Source: Thermoanaerobaculia bacterium (GTDB lineage: Bacteria; Acidobacteriota; Thermoanaerobaculia; Gp7-AA8). From it: a DNA stretch of 64,000 nucleotides. Shown piece by piece: positions 3,309 through 56,687 of this stretch. The translations under genes and the position numbers were made by a program. The stretch is from assembly GCA_036522835.1 (NCBI GenBank), contig DATDFB010000057.1, positions 3,906-67,905 on the forward strand. The letters are read 5' to 3'. Every line of letters begins with the position of its first letter. The first letter of the stretch is position 1. The notes below the pieces were generated by a model. The model made no database searches and was not told the DNA's origin. It was given only the letters and a program-made list of their open reading frames with translations.

Positions 3309-4806
3309 CCGTCACCTTCGTCACGCCGAACGGCAGCAGCATCGCGAAGTTCGGCGCGACGGCGTAGAACGGGCGGAGGTCGATCGGATTGCCGAGGAGC
3401 GCCGTGCCCGCTTTCGCACAGAGATCGCCCGTGCGGAGCATGTTCTCGATCGGGCGCTTCACGCGCATGGTCGGATAGAGCGCGTTCACCTCGTCGCGCA
3501 GGTTGCCTTGCGGCTTCTCTTTGTACTCCTTCGTGAACGACGTGACGGCGAGCTGATTGCCTTTCAGCTCCGCCTGCCAGGCCACGTGCGGCGCGCCCTC
3601 GGACGGGAAGCCGTCGTACCCGCCGTGGAAGAGAACCCCCGCCGGCGTCACCTCGGCGGCCATGTCGATGAGGTGTCCGCACGCGGCGGCGTTGACGTAT
3701 GACACATCCTGCCTGGCGATGCGATTCTGCGCGTCGTAGGTGTAGCGCGACGTGACGGCCTGCCCGTCGAGCACGAGCTCCTCGCGGTCGAGCAGCCACG
3801 CCTCGCCCGCTTTGTGCGCTCGGAAGTCGAGGAGGCCGGCGCGCTCGAGGTAGTCGGCGCCCTGCACGAGGCCCGGCCCGCTCAGGATCTCGCCGTCGTA
3901 CGTCCACCCCTCGCGCTTGCGCGCGTCCTGGATCTGCTTCTGCTTCACCGGCGTGTAGCGAAGGTCGTCGAACGGCACGCACGACAGCGTCTCGTTTCTG
4001 GCGACGCGGTCGTCGGCGTAGAACGACGTGCGCGTCGCGCCGTCGCTGCACGCGCGCGCATTCGCGTACGGCCCGTGCCAGCAGCGCGGGCACCACATCG
4101 CCCCCGTGGGGAGGCGGAGGCCGCAGAACGAGCAGACGATCTTCGTCTTCATGTCGTCGATCTCGCTCTCGAGCGCGAGGATGTGCGGCTCGATGTCCGC
4201 CTTTGACGCGGCGTCGAGGCCGGCGTAGCGGTGGAAGCGCTCCGCGGCCGTCGCCAAGTCGCCGCGCTTCTCGAAGATCACCGCCTCGTTGTAGACCGGC
4301 GCCGGGTCGTTCGGCCGCTTCTGCTCCGCGTCCTGAAAGAGCTTGAGCGCGGCGTCGTAGTCGCCCTTTTGGTAGAGGAAGCGGCCGCGCGTGAAGATCT
4401 CCGTGTACTCGTCCTCGGCCTGTTTCTTCTTCTGCAGCTCGCGCTGGAAGTCGAGCTCGAGCTGGAGCTTGGCGAGGTTCTCCTTTTCCGGTCCGGCCGG
4501 GTAGAGCTGGTTGTAGCGGTCGACTTTCTGCTGGGCCTCGGAGACGCGCCCGGCCTTGGCGAGCGTGAGGGCCATGTCGTACAGCACGCCGGCGACGTCG
4601 GGCTGCAACTGATCGGCCTTCGCGAACTGCGCGTAGGCCGCGGTGTAGTCCTTCATCGAATAGAACTTCTGGCCGAAGAAGACGGCCTTGGTGAACTCGT
4701 CCTCCGGCTGCTGCGCAAGACCGAATGCAGAATGCAGGATGCAGAATGCAGAAACGAGCAGCACCGCTCGCCATTCTGCATTTTGCATTCTGCATTCTGC
4801 ATTCAT
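3289..4806 (-). CDS. Exported TPR-repeat protein with internal zinc-ribbon (CSFCG...CPRC) and unknown C-terminal domain
   Basis: This is the C-terminal 505 codons of track ORF 3289..6636. The ATG at complement 4804-4806 overlaps the upstream gene's stop (ATGA). N-terminus MNAECRMQNAEWRAVLLVSAFCILHSAFGLAQQ is signal-peptide-like, followed by TPR-like helices (YTAAYAQFAKADQLQP..., YDAALKLFQDAEQKRPND...). No family recognised for the last ~280 aa. Confidence 0.7.
   Translation of the reverse strand: MNAECRMQNAEWRAVLLVSAFCILHSAFGLAQQPEDEFTKAVFFGQKFYSMKDYTAAYAQFAKADQLQPDVAGVLYDMALTLAKAGRVSEAQQKVDRYNQLYPAGPEKENLAKLQLELDFQRELQKKKQAEDEYTEIFTRGRFLYQKGDYDAALKLFQDAEQKRPNDPAPVYNEAVIFEKRGDLATAAERFHRYAGLDAASKADIEPHILALESEIDDMKTKIVCSFCGLRLPTGAMWCPRCWHGPYANARACSDGATRTSFYADDRVARNETLSCVPFDDLRYTPVKQKQIQDARKREGWTYDGEILSGPGLVQGADYLERAGLLDFRAHKAGEAWLLDREELVLDGQAVTSRYTYDAQNRIARQDVSYVNAAACGHLIDMAAEVTPAGVLFHGGYDGFPSEGAPHVAWQAELKGNQLAVTSFTKEYKEKPQGNLRDEVNALYPTMRVKRPIENMLRTGDLCAKAGTALLGNPIDLRPFYAVAPNFAMLLPFGVTKVTVTTPAK
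4722..4805. repeat. Hairpin repeat, GCAGAATGC family (diverged copy), inside the 5' end of a CDS
   Basis: gaatgcagaatgcaggatgcagaatgcagaa ... ccattctgcattttgcattctgcattctgcattc forms ~30-bp imperfect inverted arms. Related to 16330-16428 and 19813-19925. Confidence 0.75.
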
Positions 4807-16309: not shown

Positions 16310-16329
16310 GGCGCGTTACGCCCGCATAC

Positions 16330-16428
16330 CACGGAAACTTAGAACGCAGAATGCGAATGCAGAATGAAGAAAGCTTCGCCGGCGATTTCTCAATTCTGCA
16401 TTCGCATTCTGCGTTCTGAATTTCCGTG
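16330..16428. repeat. ~100-bp hairpin repeat, AGAACGCAGAATGCGAATGCAGAATG family
   Basis: cacggaaacttagaacgcagaatgcgaatgcagaatgaagaaa ... tttctcaattctgcattcgcattctgcgttctgaatttccgtg. The arms are nearly identical to the copy at 19813-19925. Confidence 0.9.
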
Positions 16429-16446
16429 GGCCGAAAGCAGGCGAGC

Positions 16447-18400: not shown

Positions 18401-18479
18401 GTGTCATTCCGAGCCGCGAAGACGGCGAAGAATCCCGTGCCTGCCGGCAGGGGGTCCCTCGCTCCGCTCGGGATGACAC
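18401..18479. repeat. REP-like palindrome, family GTGTCATYCCGAGC
   Basis: gtgtcattccgagccgcgaagacggcgaagaatccc...cctgccggcagg...gctcgggatgacac. It fills the gap between the kynB-like start and the upstream gene's stop. Confidence 0.85.
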
Positions 18480-18484
18480 GGCGG

Positions 18485-19816
18485 TCATGCCGAGGCGATC
18501 ACTTTCAACTCGACGAGGATCGGCGTCGGCAGGGAATCGACGCCGACCGTCGTCCGCGTCGGCTGGATCTTTCCGAGCGTCTCCGCGTAGACGCGGTTGA
18601 AGCGCTCGAAGTCGCGCTTCATGTCGGTGAGGTAGACGGTGACGTCGAGAACTTTGTCGAGCGAGCTGCCGGCCTCCTCGAGGATCGCCCTGACGTTCGC
18701 GATCGTCGCGCGCGTCTGCGTCTCGATGTCGGGCGCCGGCACCTCTCCCGTCCCCGGTTTGCGCGGGCCGACGCCGGAGAGGAAGAGGAGGTTGCCGACG
18801 CGGCGCGCGTGCGGGTATGGGCCGACCGGCGGCGGCGCCTTCGGCGTGACGAGCACCTCAGGCGTCTCTTCGCCGGGCGGCGGCGCGGCTGCGGCGAGAA
18901 CGTTGTGCGTCTCCAGTCCCGTGCCGCTCGACTGCGCGAAGGTGATCGGCGCCCCTTCGTCGAACTCCTTCTCCCACTCGATCTCTTTCTGCGGGTTCGG
19001 CGTCAGCTCGACGATGGCGTTGCCGGTGCCCCACACCGGCTGGTAGTCCCACACCTTGCCGTCGTAGCGGTTGTGCTCTCCCATCAGCGCGGCCAGCCAC
19101 CAGATGGCCTTGAAGCCCATGTCGGCGTTCGCTTCGCGGGCGAAGTCGCGCGCGACCTGGGCCACGTCCTCGAGCCGCCCCTCGCCGAGCATCTCCAGGA
19201 TCTTGCGGTTCCACTCGTCGTCCTTCGCCGAGGAGACGCGGTCGTGGGCCGGGTCGATGTCGCCGACTTCGTAGCGGTTGGAGAGGTTCGTGACGACGAC
19301 GACGACGGTTTTCTTGCCGTAGTGGTCGATGGCCGCGCGGCCGGCCATGCCGAGGGCGCGCGTCTCCTCGCGCTCCGCGTAGATGTTGCAGGACACGACG
19401 GAGGCGGGGACGGCGTTGTCCGGATTGAGGAGCTTCAGCGCCACGACGGTGCCGGTGTCGATCGGAAAGCCGTGATAGCTCACCTCCGCCGCCTGCATGC
19501 CGTTCTGTTTGCAGATCGCGCAGTAGAGTTTTCCGAATTCCGGATCGACGCGGAACTCGTAGGGGATCTCGCCGAACTGGTACCAGTTCTGATCGACGAG
19601 GATCCACTTCGGCGCGGGGTCGGTCTGGAAGAGGTGGCCGATGACGGAGAACCACTGCGTGGAGTAGACGAGGATCAGCTCCGCGCCCGACGCGGCGATC
19701 TCGCGGCCGACGGCCTCGTAGCTCGCACGCAGCGACGCCCAGCCGGGGCTCTTCTCCGGCGCGAGCAGGACGTGGGGTTGGCCGGGGACGAGATAAGCCT
19801 TCTGGATCATGGCCAC
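18485..19816 (-). CDS. Fusion protein: class III (LigB-type) extradiol dioxygenase-like domain + RidA/YjgF/UK114 enamine-imine deaminase domain
   Basis: 443 aa. N-terminal ~290 aa is LigB/AmnB-like (AYLVPGQPHVLL, LILVYSTQWFSVIGH, SYHGFPIDTGTVVAL). A PPPGEETPEV linker follows. C-terminal ~125 aa is an unmistakable RidA domain (PPVGPYPHARRVGNLLFLSGVGP...QTRATIANVRAILEEAGSSLDKVLDVTVYLTDM.DF..FN.VY...PTRTTVGV..LP....VELKVIA). An alternative ATG lies at 19810. Confidence 0.78.
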   Translation of the reverse strand: MAMIQKAYLVPGQPHVLLAPEKSPGWASLRASYEAVGREIAASGAELILVYSTQWFSVIGHLFQTDPAPKWILVDQNWYQFGEIPYEFRVDPEFGKLYCAICKQNGMQAAEVSYHGFPIDTGTVVALKLLNPDNAVPASVVSCNIYAEREETRALGMAGRAAIDHYGKKTVVVVVTNLSNRYEVGDIDPAHDRVSSAKDDEWNRKILEMLGEGRLEDVAQVARDFAREANADMGFKAIWWLAALMGEHNRYDGKVWDYQPVWGTGNAIVELTPNPQKEIEWEKEFDEGAPITFAQSSGTGLETHNVLAAAAPPPGEETPEVLVTPKAPPPVGPYPHARRVGNLLFLSGVGPRKPGTGEVPAPDIETQTRATIANVRAILEEAGSSLDKVLDVTVYLTDMKRDFERFNRVYAETLGKIQPTRTTVGVDSLPTPILVELKVIASA

Positions 19817-19925
19817 GGAAAATTAGAACGCAGAATGCGAATGCAGAATGAAGAAAACGGAGTCCGTTGGCCAAGGCGCTCCGGTTTTCTCAATTCTGCA
19901 TTCGCATTCTGCGTTCTGAATTTCC
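19813..19925. repeat. ~110-bp hairpin repeat, AGAACGCAGAATGCGAATGCAGAATG family
   Basis: ccacggaaaattagaacgcagaatgcgaatgcagaatgaagaaaacgg ... ccggttttctcaattctgcattcgcattctgcgttctgaatttcc. Near-identical arms to 16330-16428 with a larger loop. Confidence 0.9.
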
Positions 19926-19930
19926 TTGAT

Positions 19931-42873: not shown

Positions 42874-43079
42874 GCAGAACGCTCGCACTCTGCCAACGCT
42901 CGGGAGAACGACCGGGAGGCCTCCGGCGGGCGGGCACGGCCCGCAGCGTTTGTTGGCGCGCAAATCATGTTTCCTGCGAAACCCGTACGTTCGGCCGGAG
43001 GCAACCAGCGCTGCGGGCCGCGCCCGCCCGCCGGAGGCCCTTCGTCGTCCCCTGCGTTGGCAGAGTGCGAGCGTTCTGC
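42874..43079. repeat. 206-bp nested palindrome (MITE-like or structured-RNA-like) between the ccsA-like gene and hemA
   Basis: Outer arms form a perfect 26-bp inverted repeat: gcagaacgctcgcactctgccaacgc (42874-42899) / gcgttggcagagtgcgagcgttctgc (43054-43079). Inner arms 42914-42948 / 43009-43040 are about 32 bp with 1-2 mismatches. About 60-nt central region. Confidence 0.85.
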
Positions 43080-43092
43080 ACGGGAGGGCGAC

Positions 43093-44355
43093 ATGGCCCT
43101 GATCGCCATCGGCCTCAACCACCGCACTGCCCCCGTGGACGTGCGCGAGCGGCTCAGCGTGGCCGAGTCGAAGCTGCCGGAGTTGATCGCGAGCCTCACG
43201 GCCATGAGCGGCGTCGACGGCGGCGCCATCGTCTCGACCTGCAACCGCGTCGAGACCTACGTCTCCGCCTCGAGCGAAGACATCATCGAAGCGGTCGTCG
43301 ACTGGCTCGCCGAGCGCGCCGGCGCCGACCGGGCCGAGATCGAGAAGCACCTCTACATCCTTCGCCACGGCGACGTGGTCAAGCACCTCTTCCGCGTGGC
43401 CGCGGGGCTCGACTCGATGATTGTCGGCGAGCCGCAGATCCACGGCCAGGTGCGCGCGGCGTTCCTGGAGTCGCAGCGCTGCGGCGCGCTCGACGCACTG
43501 CTGATGCACGTCTTCGAGCAGACCATGCGCGTGGCCAAGAAGATCCGCACCGACACCGGCATCGGCGAGCACGCCGTCTCCGTGCCGTACGCCGCGGTGG
43601 AGCTGGCGAAGAAGATCTTCGGCGAGCTCGACGGCCTGCAGGCGCTGCTCCTCGGCGCGGGCGACATCGGCGAGCTAACGGCGGAGCACCTCGCGGGCTC
43701 GGGTGTGCGCCAGATCTTCGTGGCCAACCGCGCCTACGAGCGCGGCGTGCAGCTCGCCGAGCGCTTCGGCGGCGCGGCCATCCAGTTCAGCGCTGTCGAG
43801 CCGTACCTGGCCACGTGCGACATCGTCATCGCCTCGACCGCAGCGCCGCACTTCGTCATCGAGCGCGGCCAGGTCGCGCGCGCGCTGGAGTCGCGGAAGA
43901 TGAAGAACCTCTTCCTCATCGACCTGAGCGTGCCGCGCAACATCGACCCGGCCATCGCCAAGGTCGAGGGCGCCTATCTCTACAACATCGACGACCTCCA
44001 GCTCGTGGCCGAGTCGAACCGCGAGCTGCGCATGAAGAAGGCCCAGCAGGCGGAGGAGATCGTGGCGCGCGAGGTGGAGTCGTTCCGCCGCCGCATCGCC
44101 GCCATGGACGCGGTGCCGACGATCGTCGAGCTGCAGCAGCGCCTCGAGGAGATCCGCGCCACGGAGCTGGAACGGTGCCTCCGCCGCGTCGGCCCGATCA
44201 CCGCCGAGCAGCGCGAGGCCATCGAGATGATGACCACGCAGATGGTCAACAAGATCCTCCACTACCCGATCCTCCAGCTCAAGGAAGCCGACGAGCCGCA
44301 GGAGCAGCGCGAGTCGCTCCGCAAGACGATTCGAAAGATCTTCGGGCTGCGATGA
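43093..44355 (+). CDS. hemA: Glutamyl-tRNA reductase
   Basis: In-frame part of track ORF 42967..44355 from MALIAIGLNHRTAPVDVRERLSV. SD GGGAGGG at 43082-43088. STCNRVE catalytic Cys motif and LLGAGDIGELTAEHL NADPH site. Confidence 0.95.
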   Translation: MALIAIGLNHRTAPVDVRERLSVAESKLPELIASLTAMSGVDGGAIVSTCNRVETYVSASSEDIIEAVVDWLAERAGADRAEIEKHLYILRHGDVVKHLFRVAAGLDSMIVGEPQIHGQVRAAFLESQRCGALDALLMHVFEQTMRVAKKIRTDTGIGEHAVSVPYAAVELAKKIFGELDGLQALLLGAGDIGELTAEHLAGSGVRQIFVANRAYERGVQLAERFGGAAIQFSAVEPYLATCDIVIASTAAPHFVIERGQVARALESRKMKNLFLIDLSVPRNIDPAIAKVEGAYLYNIDDLQLVAESNRELRMKKAQQAEEIVAREVESFRRRIAAMDAVPTIVELQQRLEEIRATELERCLRRVGPITAEQREAIEMMTTQMVNKILHYPILQLKEADEPQEQRESLRKTIRKIFGLR

Positions 44356-45356
44356 GCGAGACAATCCGCATCGGCACGCGCGGCAGCCAACTCGCGCTCT
44401 GGCAAGCCAACGAAGTGTCGAACCGGCTCAGCGAAATCGGCTACCGGCCGGAGATCGCGGTCATCAAGACGACGGGCGACAAGCGCACCGACGTGCCGCT
44501 GTCGTCGGTCGGCGGCAAGGGCCTCTTCATCAAGGAGCTCGAGGAGGCGCTGGCGCGGCGCGAGATCGATGTGGCCGTGCACTCGCTCAAGGACGTGCCG
44601 TCGCTCGTCCCCGAGCCGTTCGTGCTGGCCGGCTTCCTCGAGCGCGCCGACGCCCGCGACGCCTGGGTGCAGCTCGACGGCACGCGCATCGAGGAGCTGG
44701 CTGCAGGCGCGGTCGTCGGCACGAGCGCGCCGCGGCGGCGCGCGCAACTGCGGCTGCTCTTTCCGTCGCTCACGCTCGAGGAGATGCGCGGCAACGTCGA
44801 CACGCGCATCAATAAACTGCGCGCCGGCTTGTACGACGGCGCGGTGCTGGCGTCGGCCGGACTCATTCGACTCGGCCGTTCCAGCGAGATCACCGCGCAG
44901 TTCGACGTCGACCAGATGGTGCCGGCCGCGGGGCAGGGCATCGTCACGATCGAGTGCAACAAAGACGACGATCGCGCGCGCCAGGCCGCCGCGGCGATCA
45001 ACCACCATCCCAGCGAGGCCGCGGCGCGCGCCGAGCGCGGCGTGCTGCAGAAGTTCGGCGAGGCGCTCGACTGCTACTCCGCCGTGGCCGTGCATGCGAC
45101 GTGGGCCCGTGTCATTCCGCGTCGCGAAGACGGCGAGGAGTCCCGTGCACACGACGACGGCGATGCTCCGTCGGCAGGAGATCCTTCGCCGTCTTCGCGG
45201 CTCGGGATGACACGTCTCAAGATCCGCGCGTTCTTCGGCGAGCTCGAAGGCGAGCGCCATTTGCACGTCACGCGCGAAGGCGACGAGGCCGACGCCGTCG
45301 TGCAGCAAGTCTTCGACGAGCTCGTCGACCGCGGAGCCATGGAGCTGCTCAAGTGA
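44352..45356 (+). CDS. hemC: Hydroxymethylbilane synthase (porphobilinogen deaminase) with in-frame repeat-derived insertion
   Basis: Last 335 codons of track ORF 42240..45356. ATGA overlap with hemA. IRIGTRGSQLALWQA, HSLKDVP, RGNVDTRINKL, and the cofactor Cys in EALDCYSAV. Contains a 35-codon insert, (R)VIPRREDGEESRAHDDGDAPSAGDPSPSSRLGMTR. Confidence 0.93.
   Translation: MSETIRIGTRGSQLALWQANEVSNRLSEIGYRPEIAVIKTTGDKRTDVPLSSVGGKGLFIKELEEALARREIDVAVHSLKDVPSLVPEPFVLAGFLERADARDAWVQLDGTRIEELAAGAVVGTSAPRRRAQLRLLFPSLTLEEMRGNVDTRINKLRAGLYDGAVLASAGLIRLGRSSEITAQFDVDQMVPAAGQGIVTIECNKDDDRARQAAAAINHHPSEAAARAERGVLQKFGEALDCYSAVAVHATWARVIPRREDGEESRAHDDGDAPSAGDPSPSSRLGMTRLKIRAFFGELEGERHLHVTREGDEADAVVQQVFDELVDRGAMELLK
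45109..45213. repeat. REP-like palindrome (GTGTCATTCC...GGGATGACAC), 105 bp, in frame inside hemC
   Basis: gtgtcattccgcgtcgcgaagacggcgaggagtccc ... ggagatccttcgccgtcttcgcggctcgggatgacac. About 36-bp arms, about 33-nt loop. Length 105 = 35 codons. Confidence 0.88.
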
Positions 45357-46810
45357 AGAGCGGAAAAGTCTTTCTCACCGGCGCCGGCCCGGGCGATCCG
45401 GGGCTCCTGACGACGCTCGCCGCGCAGTTGATCGCGACGGCCGATCTCATCGCCACCGACGCGCTGGTCTCGCGCGAGATCGTGGCGCTCTTTCCGAAAA
45501 CGGCGCAGGTCGTCTACGTCGGCAAACGCGCCAGCGCGCACACGCTGCCGCAGGACCAGATCAATCAGCTCCTCATCGACGAGGCGAAGAAGGGGAAGCG
45601 CGTCGTGCGGCTCAAGGGCGGCGATCCGTTCGTCTTCGGCCGCGGCGGGGAGGAGGCGGAGGAGCTCGCCGCCGCCGGCGTGGAGTTCGAGATCGTCCCC
45701 GGCATCTCCTCGGCGATCGCCGGCCCCGCCTACGCCGGCATTCCGGTCACGCACCGCGCCCACGCCACGTCGGTGACGCTCGTGACCGGCCACGAATCGG
45801 AAGAGTCGACGGGAATCCAATGGGCCGCGCTCGCGCAGCTCAACGGCACGATCGTCTTCATGATGGGTCTCGCCAATCTGCCGCTCATCGCGCGCAAGCT
45901 GCGCGAGCACGGCGTTCCCGGCACGCGCCGCGCCGCGGTGATCTCGCACGCTACGCGTCCCGAGCAGCGCACCGTGGCCGGCACGCTCGACGACATCGAG
46001 TCGCGCGCGGCGGAGGCGAAGATCGAGCCGCCGGCGCTCATCGTGGTGGGCGAGGTCGTGCAGCTCCACGACACGATCGATTGGTTCGAGTCGAAGCCGC
46101 TCTTCGGCCGCCGCGTCGTCGTCACGCGCGCCCGCGAGCAAGCCTCGGATCTGAAGCGCCTCTTCGAGGAGAGCGGCGCGCAGGTCGTGCAGTTTCCGAC
46201 GATCGAGATCGTGCCGCCGGAGTCGTGGGATTCGCTCGACCGCGCCGTCGACGAGGCGTGGGACTGGCTGATCTTCACCTCGACGAACGGCGTGGGCGCC
46301 TTCTTCGAGCGCCTCTTCGCCCGCGGCAAAGACGTGCGGGCGATTGCGCCGAAGATCGCCGCCGTCGGCGAGGCTACGGCCGCGTCGCTGCGCGCGCGCG
46401 GCATCGCGCCCGACGTCGTTCCCGACAAGTTCCTGTCCTCCGCCCTGATTCCGTTGCTGCCCGAGAATCCCGGCCGCACGGCGATCGTCCGCGCGCAGGA
46501 AGGGCGCGACGATCTCCTCGACGCGCTGCGCGGGCGCGGCGCCGAGGTGCATCTGGCGGTGGCGTACCGCAACGTTCCAGTCGTGCACGACAAGGACGAG
46601 CTTCACGACATCGACGTCGTCACGTTCACCAGCGCCTCGACCGTCGACAACTTCTTCGCCAGCGGCGGCAACGCCAACGGCGCGCTCGTGGCCTCGATCG
46701 GCCCGATCACCAGCGAGGCGATCCGGAAGCACGGGCGCGCCGTCGACGTCGAGGCGCCGGCGGCGACGATTCAGGCGCTGCACGACGCGGTGGTGGCGCG
46801 GCTGCGCTAG
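45353..46810 (+). CDS. cobA: Bifunctional uroporphyrinogen-III C-methyltransferase / uroporphyrinogen-III synthase
   Basis: GTG start in GTGA overlap with hemC. GKVFLTGAGPGDPGLLT, RLKGGDPFVFGRGGEE, VPGISSAIAGPAYAGIPVTHR (SUMT). The C-terminal ~235 aa (LFGRRVVVTRAREQASDL...) is HemD-like. Confidence 0.9.
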   Translation: MKSGKVFLTGAGPGDPGLLTTLAAQLIATADLIATDALVSREIVALFPKTAQVVYVGKRASAHTLPQDQINQLLIDEAKKGKRVVRLKGGDPFVFGRGGEEAEELAAAGVEFEIVPGISSAIAGPAYAGIPVTHRAHATSVTLVTGHESEESTGIQWAALAQLNGTIVFMMGLANLPLIARKLREHGVPGTRRAAVISHATRPEQRTVAGTLDDIESRAAEAKIEPPALIVVGEVVQLHDTIDWFESKPLFGRRVVVTRAREQASDLKRLFEESGAQVVQFPTIEIVPPESWDSLDRAVDEAWDWLIFTSTNGVGAFFERLFARGKDVRAIAPKIAAVGEATAASLRARGIAPDVVPDKFLSSALIPLLPENPGRTAIVRAQEGRDDLLDALRGRGAEVHLAVAYRNVPVVHDKDELHDIDVVTFTSASTVDNFFASGGNANGALVASIGPITSEAIRKHGRAVDVEAPAATIQALHDAVVARLR

Positions 46811-56470: not shown

Positions 56471-56687
56471 CCGATCGAAGAGCGCACGCTTCCGATCGAA
56501 GAACGAACGCTTCAATCGGAATCGTGCGCTCTTCGATTTTAATCGTACGCTCTTCGATCTTTATCGCGCGCTCTTCGATCTTTATCGCGCGCTCTTCGAT
56601 CGGAATCGCGCGCTCTTCGATCGGAATGGCGCACTCTTCGATCGGAATCGTGCGTTCTTCGGTTGCAAGCGTGCGTTCTTCGAAAAC
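56471..56687. repeat. Array of ten 21-bp units (2 inverted + 8 direct), consensus AATCGCGCGCTCTTCGATCGG
   Basis: Direct units start at 56520, 56541, 56562, 56583, 56604, 56625, 56646 and 56667. Inverted units are at 56471-56491 and 56492-56512 (ccgatcgaagagcgcacgctt is the exact reverse complement of aagcgtgcgctcttcgatcgg). The array is flanked by GTTGTTAGG / CCTAAGAAC-type inverted sequences at 56437-56470 and 56688-56716. Confidence 0.9.

Follow-up and report, generated by a model that had tools for sequence, protein, structure and literature searches.

RPEs are palindromes of about 100-150 bp that occur in intergenic positions and also in frame within unrelated housekeeping genes (Ogata et al. 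2000, 2002, as given in PMC10969869 and PMC1166351). The peptides they encode are added in a manner compatible with the fold of the host protein, and in R. felis 85 of 728 RPEs are located inside ORFs (PMC10969869, PMC1166351). Intragenic REPs with GTAG or CGTC tags have been described within known genes of several phyla, often genes for DNA repair such as uvrA (Di Nocera et al. 2013, PMC3733652); different REPs are found at about one site of Xanthomonas recB, neutral insertion into loops and linkers was argued by the same authors, and REPs affect mRNA stability (PMC3733652). REPINs are intergenic doublets whose inverted arms pair into a hairpin (about 89 bp in Pseudomonas) and whose spacers all differ; the RAYT gene exists as a single copy, is inherited vertically, has repeats on its flanks and is matched to the repeat subtype (Bertels and Rainey 2011, PMC3116915; PMC3337134).

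The window, i.e. the whole 64-kb stretch of DNA that was analysed, comes from a Thermoanaerobaculia MAG and carries a 105-bp palindromic repeat in frame in hemC. It is very probable, in our assessment, that this repeat is a recent cargo-less insertion of a REPIN- or RPE-like palindrome, which would be translated as a nearly neutral loop of an enzyme that keeps working.

The palindrome in hemC and its repeat family

The features referred to in the text are the following (window coordinates):

43093-44355, plus strand: hemA (glutamyl-tRNA reductase), 420 aa, with Pfam GlutR_N, Shikimate_DH and GlutR_dimer; start set from the 420-aa orthologue in locus L087
44352-45356, plus strand: hemC (hydroxymethylbilane synthase), 334 aa with the insert counted, cofactor Cys C241; assigned by PF01379, PDB HMBS matches and the structural model
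45109-45213, unstranded: 105-bp palindromic repeat (family A), in frame in hemC, encoding the 35 residues VIPRREDGEESRAHDDGDAPSAGDPSPSSRLGMTR; absent in relatives
45108-45153, plus strand: left arm of the palindrome, 46 nt by inverted-repeat search, 78 % complementary to 45169-45214
45169-45214, plus strand: right arm of the palindrome; its reverse complement GTGTCATCCCGAGCCGCGAAGACGGCGA has 1 mismatch against the arm pattern
45353-46810, plus strand: cobA/hemD fusion (uroporphyrinogen-III methyltransferase and synthase), 485 aa, from Pfam TP_methylase and HEM4 and from sequence
2324-2403, unstranded: second family-A copy (80 bp), with a purE-like gene on one side and a cation-efflux gene on the other and taking up all of the spacer that separates them
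18401-18479, unstranded: third family-A copy (79 bp), within a spacer of 88 bp that separates two minus-strand genes; the right arm carries an internal deletion

The identification of hemC rests on Pfam PF01379 (E = 1.9e-77) and on matches to HMBS entries of the PDB (E = 1e-57), and C241 of the protein is aligned to C242 of E. coli. The hemA stop and the hemC start share the sequence ATGA at 44352-44355, and the GTG start of cobA/hemD at 45353 overlaps the hemC stop codon TGA (45354-45356).

The element comprises exactly 105 nt, or 35 codons, and translation in frame with hemC gives (R)VIPRREDGEESRAHDDGDAPSAGDPSPSSRLGMTR, preceded by ...AVAVHATWA and followed by LKIRAFFGELEG; deleting it in silico leaves an intact HemC of 299 aa. 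Its two arms are separated by 15 nt according to the inverted-repeat search, and the region 45100-45222 is predicted to fold into a single long RNA hairpin of -78 kcal/mol; shuffled versions average -50.3 (z = -8.0), and 0 of 200 fold as well. The original prediction had described from the letters a mobile 105-bp palindrome of exactly 35 codons, 36-bp arms and a strong internal mRNA hairpin. The length and frame were borne out by sequence and translation, the predicted fold agrees with the hairpin, and the 36 bp correspond to the better-paired outer part of the arms, the computed arms extending to 46 nt. Its mobile character is reflected in a dispersed family, of which the window contains three copies and soil metagenomes yield more than 120 matching stretches.

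A 28-nt arm motif occurs five times in the 64-kb window, whereas 0.00 occurrences are expected from shuffles; the element therefore belongs to a repeat family, and a chance palindrome is excluded. The family, designated A, has the form GTGTCATYCYGAG...CTCRGGATGACAC and is made up of two inverted arms around a non-conserved spacer, multicopy and mostly intergenic. Reconstruction yielded 96 copies of 72-189 bp with a variable centre and with sharply conserved termini (GTGTCAT.../...ATGACAC), with which the ends of the hemC element, GTGTCATTCCG.../...CTCGGGATGACAC, agree. Copy lengths display no bias towards 3n (35/32/31). Within the copy at 2324-2403 lie the stop codon of purE and an ATG that may be the start of the following gene. 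Gene callers place ORFs of 30-85 aa on these repeats. The family-A flanks show no target-site duplication: they are identical over k = 3 in 2 of 94 cases and over k >= 4 in none, k >= 3 being at chance level. A repeated ACGT (4 nt) where the element joins hemC was rejected as such a duplication, being indistinguishable from an extension of the palindrome itself.

At the gathering threshold Rfam gave zero matches over the whole 64-kb window, and in a permissive scan the element matched only hairpin models of a generic miRNA-precursor type, with scores far under the cut-offs on either strand; no Rfam match fits, and a known RNA family was discarded. An intein, an intron or a translational bypass was likewise rejected, the insert being open in frame, devoid of intein or intron features and like the intergenic copies. 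Nothing relevant was found in the literature on the family-A motif or its peptides. A profile search of a database of 5.8 billion proteins with the peptides of the element, whose word prefilter gives preference to short sequences, brought up nothing but spurious short ORFs and missed HemC itself, and an exhaustive phmmer search with the 41-residue segment of the window gave 0 matches at E <= 0.001, the query being too short for the size of the database.

Age and structural position of the insertion

The closest insert-free relatives, members of the same 90 % cluster, have HemC proteins of 300 aa that are 91-93 % identical, their genes being about 90-92 % identical in nucleotides; the nearer outgroups are likewise all of 300 aa, and both groups read ...HAT(I/V/M)NGHVKIRAFF... 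at this position. The insert-free site, ...ACG ATC AAC GGG CAC GTC AAG..., contains no hairpin (z about 0), and on balance the host gene lost 3 nt along with the insertion. Because relatives at 91-93 % protein identity are without the insert, the element in hemC is, as read from the orthologue alignment, a recent gain.

The AlphaFold model of HemC (mean pLDDT 88.9) retains the three-domain HMBS fold and matches E. coli HMBS with a TM of 0.90-0.92 and an rmsd of about 2.5 A (Foldseek). Strands 245-254 and 286-296 flank a low-confidence loop at 255-285, the remaining model having a pLDDT above 90. The turn that holds the insert links strands one and two of domain 3 and lies about 10 residues past C241, in the E. 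coli alignment as in the AlphaFold model. In the model the insert loop projects from the end of the beta-hairpin furthest from the cofactor loop, and its 35 residues probably form a hydrophilic, disordered loop. The original prediction had placed the insert in the domain-3 turn just past the cofactor Cys loop, on which alignment and model agree, and had taken it for a surface loop derived from a mobile palindrome; the members of the 91-93 % cluster and the nearer outgroups are insert-free, and a loop shared by all relatives in a form free of palindromic structure is not what was found. Domain 3 of human HMBS tolerates an extra segment of about 30 residues with activity retained, at another position; that segment is ancient, fixed in animals and not derived from a palindrome.

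In the course of events that we favour, a cargo-less hairpin repeat, of a family common in soil Acidobacteriota, entered hemC in a recent ancestor of this Thermoanaerobaculia lineage, at the very tip of the beta-hairpin that strands one and two of HemC domain 3 make up. Since by chance it is 3n long and free of stops in the hemC frame, it would be transcribed and translated with hemC as a 35-residue loop, translation presumably passing through the hairpin of -78 kcal/mol. HemC would keep working, and the insert would be a nearly neutral passenger that slowly gathers changes.

Recurrence at the HemC turn and selection after the insertion

Seven of the 87 evaluable family-A copies (about 8 %) were in frame in coding-like ORFs. 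Hosts confirmed by Pfam include UvrA, an M61 peptidase, a HI0933-like flavoprotein, a lantibiotic dehydratase N-domain protein and a HhH-GPD glycosylase, and a multidomain glycoside hydrolase also hosts a copy, between its domain matches. At the HemC turn itself, palindromic inserts (z from -3.3 to -13.3) were found in other Thermoanaerobaculia at loci L005, L006, L023, L031, L036, L040 and L213, which amount to at least seven independent inserts from at least six sequence-unrelated palindrome families and share neither length nor sequence. In a three-gene scan of 52 loci, palindromes concentrate at hemC codons 258-276 and recur at the hemC 3' end too. In the same 52 loci, the 1,260 nt that precede hemC yielded five inverted repeats, none of them further than about 450 nt from the hemC start, and cobA/hemD downstream yielded four; of the five, the four with long arms end 10-43 nt ahead of that start. 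Neither the recurrence at this turn nor the in-frame copies in other genes had been foreseen in the original prediction, and the same is true of the association with a GIY-YIG gene described below.

The recurrence most likely marks the turn as one of the few HemC sites where an insertion survives selection. Instead of selection sparing insertions there, the elements or their mobilising enzyme could prefer this stretch of hemC at the DNA level, a reading in keeping with at least seven independent events in about eight codons, with the few inverted repeats flagged next door in the 52 loci, and with the Xanthomonas recB site (PMC3733652). We nevertheless regard such targeting as rather unlikely: a target specificity shared by six or more unrelated families is not to be expected, the insert-free sites have no intrinsic hairpin, the exact insertion points are several codons apart, and the family-A flanks show no consensus target.

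Between the allele of the window and that of locus L091, which both bear the insert, 24 codon changes in the host part are synonymous and 3 non-synonymous, and in the insert 1 is synonymous and 3 are non-synonymous (Fisher p = 0.016, with small counts from one allele pair). From 24/3 in the host part versus 1/3 in the insert it follows that hemC, as far as this one allele pair indicates, is kept under purifying selection after the insertion while the loop drifts. The insert might even so have been co-opted, its mRNA hairpin tuning how the hemA-hemC-cobA/hemD message is expressed or decays, or its loop giving HemC a new interaction, and the hairpin of about -72 kcal/mol in both diverged insert alleles, the palindromes recurring at the turn and at the hemC 3' end, and the known effects of REPs on mRNA stability (PMC3733652) are compatible with this. 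Co-option is nonetheless improbable, given that three of the four substitutions in the insert alter the protein, which points to relaxed constraint, that the derived insert changes relative to the family consensus weaken base pairs with 0 compensatory changes, that the nearest relatives manage without the insert, and that the recurrent inserts differ in sequence and length. In-gene and intergenic family-A hairpins do not differ in strength (p = 0.19), which is neither for nor against a structural role.

Very little favours the view that the insert inactivated hemC and that the gene is decaying while haem synthesis depends on another copy in the genome. The C-terminal Pfam domain of HemC is undetected here, but it is equally undetected in insert-free relatives, and the clade-specific motif LDCYSAVAVHA is invariant among the HemC relatives. 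The cofactor Cys C241 and the catalytic Arg, Asp and Lys are invariant as well, with R10, K80/D81, R128-R130, R146 and R152 conserved throughout 94 homologues. The 64-kb window contains no second hemC, relatives carry a single hem operon at the corresponding locus, and the 24 synonymous versus 3 non-synonymous changes in the host part were gathered since the insertion. The frame, the downstream HemC residues and the GTGA coupling to cobA/hemD, reported as intact from the start, were confirmed from the sequence, and together with the invariant residues and the purifying selection on the host part they argue that hemC is probably functional, as had been proposed. An assembly or chimera artefact caused by the repeat can be practically dismissed, for although repeats can mislead assemblers, and the L005 scaffold contains a suspicious 114-bp duplication, at least four independent assemblies of different samples, from JGI, ENA, Logan and NCBI, agree fully on the 334-aa allele (JGI 3300039426 and ERR1051325 are among the samples that carry it), both insert junctions are nucleotide-identical in the three aligned loci L087-L089, and alleles P0123 and P0130 also bear the insert with a few substitutions.

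In-frame 'selfish' palindromes have until now been mainly a Rickettsia curiosity, with scattered REP cases elsewhere; here the process is active now in abundant free-living soil Acidobacteriota, and a before/after pair at 91-93 % identity, combined with the later selection, makes a clean natural experiment on new protein loops. One beta-hairpin turn struck at least seven times by unrelated palindromes is a testable case of tolerance versus targeting. In practice, such inserts disrupt domain detection and swell the number of 'hypothetical protein' calls.

A GIY-YIG nuclease between family-A arms and comparison with known systems

The only gene found between family-A arms encodes a small GIY-YIG nuclease of about 100 aa and of the UPF0213/YhbQ type (PF01541, E = 2.7e-15), whose nearest solved structure is 1ZG2, UPF0213 protein BH0048; NCBIfam has no model for it. 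Family arms flank the gene on both sides in 8 of 8 loci, with an outer inverted pair enclosing it in seven, and all five arm pairs of 301-600 bp enclose a GIY-YIG gene, and 0 another gene. These genes are mostly at one conserved DHO_dh locus, and greater divergence of the nuclease goes along with greater divergence of the arms. Identical GIY-YIG proteins on many contigs were considered as multiple copies, a reading that was rejected for that of one orthologous locus across many samples; the figure of 62 % of nuclease homologues having arm-encoded tails therefore does not stand for 68 independent events. Longer elements with family-A arms and a GIY-YIG gene exist, and the cargo-less copies have no gene remnants, only 12-15-nt matches to GIY-YIG genes being found in the long ones; the model in which cargo-less copies are deletion derivatives of a nuclease-bearing element is unsupported. 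A tblastn search of about 2 Mb with an IS200 TnpA query, a weak test of low power, gave no match at E < 0.2.

By association, the GIY-YIG nuclease is a candidate mobilising enzyme of family A. We tentatively propose, as an idea somewhat more apt to fail than to hold, that the GTGTCAT...ATGACAC palindromes are non-autonomous REPIN-like replicators, whose putative cognate enzyme would be not a RAYT but the GIY-YIG nuclease of the UPF0213/YhbQ type, its gene located in the loop of a master copy that occupies a conserved chromosomal locus. The nuclease link, if functional, would represent a new enzyme class behind REP-like repeats and hint at what the poorly understood UPF0213/YhbQ proteins do. 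Were the REPIN-like reading true, it would amount to a second, independent invention of the REPIN-RAYT lifestyle, provide a function for a widespread orphan nuclease family, and account for the repeated seeding of new surface loops by palindromes in essential enzymes (HemC, UvrA) of free-living soil bacteria.

Family A resembles REPINs in its inverted arms with a variable spacer, and RAYT systems in the nuclease gene located between arms at mostly one locus. It differs from them in that the enzyme is a GIY-YIG nuclease of the UPF0213/YhbQ type as opposed to an IS200-like HUH tyrosine transposase, and in that its gene is inside the loop of one split palindrome, whereas RAYT is located beside whole REPINs. 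Like MITEs, family-A copies are short, non-coding, multicopy and bounded by terminal inverted repeats, with occasional in-frame fusions; unlike them, they have no target-site duplication, no related insertion sequence with family-A ends was found, and remnants of a cargo gene are missing in the longer copies.

With intragenic REPs the present family shares a copy within UvrA, but its arms of about 36 nt, its hairpins of 72-189 bp and its GTGTCAT/ATGACAC ends are different, the GTAG/CGTC tag is missing in 96 copies, and a Y1 transposase was not found in about 2 Mb by the weak tblastn test. The likeness to RPEs consists in palindromic, fold-compatible, in-frame insertion, with a share inside ORFs of 7/87 here versus 85/728 in R. 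felis. There is no apparent sequence relationship, as judged from the lack of an Rfam match and from the Thermoanaerobaculia MAG as host. The host of family A is a free-living, high-GC soil acidobacterium and that of RPEs a reduced intracellular alphaproteobacterium; family A has a variable centre and a continuous range of lengths (72-189 bp), and a nuclease gene is identifiable with it, whereas none is reported in the cited RPE papers. In-frame palindromes are of a known kind, that of RPEs and intragenic REPs (PMC10969869, PMC3733652, PMC1166351), to which the HemC hot spot and the nuclease link add new leads.

The hemC insert and its recent origin

The hemC open reading frame of the window holds, in frame at 45109-45213, a 105-bp palindrome of the dispersed family A, and forms part of the following operon:

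43093-44355, hemA, overlapping the hemC start by ATGA
44352-45356, hemC, hydroxymethylbilane synthase (PF01379, E 1.9e-77)
45108-45153 and 45169-45214, palindrome arms found by inverted-repeat search, 46 nt each, 78 % complementary, 15 nt between them
45353-46810, cobA/hemD fusion, its GTG start overlapped by the hemC end

The hemC product matches the HMBS structures of E. coli, Vibrio and Arabidopsis with E about 1e-57. The insert comprises exactly 35 codons, is stop-free in the hemC frame, and encodes the peptide VIPRREDGEESRAHDDGDAPSAGDPSPSSRLGMTR, placed between ...AVAVHATWA(R) and LKIRAFF...; the original prediction of an in-frame, 35-codon palindrome proved correct in every detail that could be checked. 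The reading frame and the GTGA coupling to cobA/hemD are seen to be intact, as had been stated, and the hemA-hemC-cobA/hemD coupling is unbroken. The strong mRNA hairpin that had been anticipated is also predicted by folding: the RNA of 45100-45222 forms one long hairpin of -78 kcal/mol (dinucleotide-shuffle mean -50.3; z = -8.0; 0 of 200 shuffles as good).

The insert is no assembly artefact. Independent assemblies at JGI, ENA, Logan and NCBI, made from different samples, contain contigs that encode an identical 334-aa HemC (the NCBI entry derives from a Thermoanaerobaculia MAG), and three aligned contigs (L087-L089) agree in every nucleotide of the element and of its two junctions. The 90 %-identity HemC cluster contains two further 334-aa alleles (P0123 and P0130) and, in the comparison with close orthologues that had been proposed as a check, eight insert-free members of 300 aa and 91-93 % identity (...HAT(I/M)(N/D)GHVKIRAFF...); all nearer outgroups (75-87 % identity) are also ~300 aa. 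The relatives therefore do not share a loop devoid of palindromic DNA; they have no loop. Their DNA matches both flanks of the insert at ~90-92 % (L007, L092) or 88 % (L001, L002), has 13 nt where the window has 115, and folds in an ordinary manner in the corresponding region (z between 0 and +1.6). Since the insert is absent from close relatives at both protein and DNA level, the palindrome was acquired in the ancestor of the window and of L091, a diverged insert-bearing allele; the two now differ by 4.4 % across the operon.

Because both of these alleles carry the insert, the 33 nucleotide differences between their hemC genes postdate the insertion. The host part (900 nt) shows 24 synonymous codon changes and 3 protein-changing ones, against 1 synonymous and 3 non-synonymous changes in the element (Fisher p = 0.016; one allele pair, small counts). 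These ratios show that the host gene has been under strong purifying selection ever since the insertion, and that the protein sequence of the inserted loop is only slightly constrained. The insert, in which derived substitutions relative to the family consensus weaken base pairs and none is compensatory, fits a slowly decaying passenger. No second hemC lies within the 64-kb window. The expectation that the insert-bearing hemC is probably functional is supported by the purifying selection, by the intact coupling, and by catalytic residues that are invariant in an alignment of 94 homologues.

The HemC turn and its palindromes

An AlphaFold2 model of the insert-bearing HemC, based on the alignment of 94 homologues (mean pLDDT 88.9, pTM 0.84), places a loop (255-285) between strands 245-254 and 286-296; pLDDT drops to 47-53 in the loop block and is mostly >90 in the remainder. 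Foldseek comparison with E. coli HMBS (1YPN, 1AH5, 1PDA) gave a target-normalised TM of 0.90-0.92 and an rmsd of ~2.5 A. In the alignment with E. coli, the insert replaces the short turn (..ELIDGEIWL..) joining the first two domain-3 strands, about ten residues past the cofactor cysteine (C241 here, C242 in E. coli); alignment and model thus agree with the predicted location in the turn of the domain-3 strands after the cofactor-Cys loop. As a ten-residue beta strand is roughly 30 A long, the loop should project from the hairpin end remote from the catalytic cleft. The unusual LDCYSAVAVHA motif around the cysteine and a C-terminal domain undetected by Pfam are common to insert-free relatives, and are therefore clade features rather than signs of decay.

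In HemC homologues and in the Thermoanaerobaculia genomes of GTDB, all large inserts inside HemC were located within ~8 codons past the VH[AC] motif, and all were palindromic at the DNA level.

Palindromic inserts at the HemC turn of other loci (L) and proteins (P)
L005: family A, 81 bp, z -6.4, with an odd 114-bp duplication
L006, also P0031 and P0032: family B (GTCATCCCGAGCG...), arms 97 % complementary, z -8.0
L036 and L040: family C, z -13.3 and -11.9
L031: family D, z -4.5
L023: two small hairpins, z -3.3
L213, also P0120: family F, z -7.0

With L036 and L040 counted as one, the turn has received at least seven insertions from at least six palindrome families. A long-inverted-repeat scan of hemA, hemC and cobA/hemD in 52 loci (~187 kb) showed strong in-gene palindromes clustering at hemC codons 258-276, and a second group at the hemC 3' end. 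None of the hits assigned to hemA lay farther than ~450 nt upstream of where hemC starts; the four with long arms, which end 10-43 nt before that start, are suspected to be intergenic.

Such recurrence could reflect DNA-level targeting of this hemC stretch. This is unlikely, given that the families at the turn are unrelated, that their exact insertion points differ, and that the empty site has no special structure. For the same reasons a selection filter is favoured, whereby the turn would tolerate insertions that other positions in this flexible three-domain enzyme would not.

Several other features of these loci were recorded. At L005:1281-1475, a 114-bp tandem duplication of a hemC segment plus the family-A left end results in a 370-aa HemC with a repeated '...LRKFG.PLD.YS...', and could represent either an artefact of the scaffold or a genuine repeat-mediated rearrangement. 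In a Thermoanaerobaculia MAG (L038:10001 onward), hemC and cobA/hemD share one continuous ORF of 794 aa, apparently through gene fusion. Short HemC proteins (274-288 aa, shortened domain 3, e.g. ...RAFFNGVRASGATVDEVY...) are encoded by L020, L026, L028-L030, L033, L035, L039, L044 and L046, four of which (L028, L035, L039, L044) have a long palindrome ~100 nt upstream of hemC. The related genomes L045 (8141-8227) and L048 (11699-11803) carry long inverted repeats with arms of 26-35 nt at differing positions of the cobA/hemD region, possibly further in-gene palindromes.

Family A, other palindromes and the GIY-YIG nuclease

Two further family-A copies are found in the window:

2324-2403, copy 1, filling the gap from a purE-like gene to a cation-efflux gene
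18401-18479, copy 2, in an 88-bp spacer between two co-directional genes

The left end of copy 1 supplies the purE-like stop (...RRVSS, then TGA at 2333-2335), and the cation-efflux gene that follows has a candidate ATG (2397) in the right terminus of the copy, GGAATGACAC. The 25-nt arm pattern occurs in at least 120 stretches of JGI metagenome contigs, mostly from soil and rhizosphere, and 96 elements were reconstructed from these and other loci. Their termini, GTGTCATYCYGAGCCGCG(A/C)AGACGGCGA.../...CTCRGGATGACAC, are sharply conserved, while the centre is variable and the length continuous from 72 to 189 bp, with no bias towards multiples of three (35/32/31). The flanks display no target-site duplication (k of 3 or more at chance level) and no clear target consensus. 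This anatomy is that of a REPIN-like hairpin doublet, not of a classical MITE. One copy has three tandem left arms (L159:426-593) and another a 3-fold tandem repeat inside its loop (L156:854-1013), which suggest slippage or recombination within elements; many annotated 'hypothetical proteins' of 30-85 aa (P0131-P0176) are translations of intergenic family-A palindromes.

A strict filter required a frame open across the whole element and, on each side of it, no fewer than 40 codons and a coding-type GC3 pattern. By this filter 7 of 87 evaluable copies were in frame within genes, with a few more at looser criteria. Pfam-confirmed hosts are UvrA, an HhH-GPD glycosylase, an HI0933-like flavoprotein, an M61 peptidase, a lantibiotic dehydratase N-domain protein, a formyltransferase and a large GH43/pectinesterase/GDSL/GH88 protein; in several, the domain match extends across the element. 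Most in-gene copies read in the hemC frame (VI[LP]SREDGEG...SSRLGMT), the third frame at each element end holds TGA in most variants, and fold strength is equal for in-gene and intergenic copies (p = 0.19). In-frame residence in genes is thus a general property of the family. The 1478-aa glycoside hydrolase ORF of L102 has a second palindrome-derived segment (DVIPSVSEGP...ARDDT), from a related family, between GH43 and GH43_C2.

The palindromes are active now, to judge by the ccsA-hemA spacer:

42874-43079, near-perfect nested palindrome of another family, 206 bp, -169.5 kcal/mol, present in the window and L087

In L091, L001 and L002 this spacer is empty and measures 9 nt, and in L092 it holds a different palindrome of 156 nt. 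Across the operon L091 matches the window at 95.6 % and yet has the empty spacer, so that the upstream palindrome was gained later than the hemC insert. Elsewhere in the window, AT-richer palindromes on GAATGCA-type heptamers are located at 16329-16429, 19814-19928 and 4723-4804, two of them forming one ~100-bp family and the last in or close to the N-terminal portion of a long ORF on the minus strand (with peptides such as NAECRMQNAEWR and SAFCILHSAF), and a dense array of a ~20-nt unit, CGATCGAAGAGCGCACGCTT, in direct and inverted copies occupies 56471-56645.

In L108, two intact family-A arms are 388 bp apart, and the 'loop' encodes a ~100-aa GIY-YIG protein (PF01541, E 2.7e-15) whose ORF starts a few bases past one arm and ends inside the other. 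Its closest solved relative is UPF0213 protein BH0048 (1ZG2); NCBIfam has no model for it. Family arms were present on both flanks in all eight nuclease loci examined as DNA, and seven of these loci have the gene inside an outer inverted pair.

Nuclease loci and their arms
L108, L217, L214: nuclease between family-A arms
L186: GGGACCTCACA arm subtype, common to 158-189-bp copies
L168: arms of family B, the family present in the L006 hemC
L098: frameshifted nuclease gene, with a short palindrome on each side
L224 and L225: nuclease with extra nested copies

We counted 133 consecutive left-right arm pairs in 2.05 Mb of non-redundant DNA: 124 of 200 bp or shorter, three of 201-300 bp, apparently with nested repeats of other families, five of 301-600 bp, every one with a GIY-YIG gene, and none of 601-3000 bp. 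The nuclease is therefore the only cargo seen in this DNA. It has at least 6,523 homologues; the closest among the matches listed are mostly orthologues that share a single conserved locus (Transp_cyt_pur / DHO_dh / GIY-YIG / aminotransferase), so that the arm-encoded peptides in which 68 of 109 nuclease proteins end are not independent events; the independent genomic contexts number four. No nuclease-gene remnant was recognisable in long cargo-less copies. The picture suggested is that of a single, vertically inherited gene between arms whose subtype follows the divergence of the nuclease; hairpin doublets that lack cargo and have unique spacers would meanwhile have spread through the genome. 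The nuclease may mobilise the palindromes, home into them, or merely reside there.

Comparison with known palindromic repeats

The core finding on the hemC insert is confirmed, and is largely ordinary in kind. In-frame palindromic repeats in housekeeping genes are established for the Rickettsia palindromic elements (RPEs; PMC10969869, PMC1166351), and intragenic REPs, frequently hosted by uvrA, uvrB or recB, occur in several phyla (PMC3733652); the hemC insert shows the same behaviour. The in-gene fraction of family A, ~8 %, is close to that of the R. felis RPEs, of which 85 of 728 are in genes (PMC1166351, PMC10969869). In-frame palindromes as such are thus known, but this insert lies outside the described families: it has no Rfam match and no RPE match, although the RPE models themselves were not compared, and its family shows neither the GTAG nor the CGTC tag that described REPs carry, nor the other MITE and REP hallmarks of target-site duplication and RAYT. 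It provides a clean, recent and selection-tested example in free-living soil Acidobacteriota, at a narrowly delimited hot spot into which at least six palindrome families have inserted.

That the family is specifically associated with a small GIY-YIG nuclease is of added interest, and our literature search found no published description of this association. A search of ~2 Mb of compared DNA for a Y1 transposase gave no match, a weak test with an approximate IS200 TnpA query. The close parallel to the picture suggested is REPIN-RAYT (PMC3337134, PMC3116915); its enzyme is an HUH tyrosine transposase, whereas the gene associated with family A encodes a GIY-YIG nuclease.
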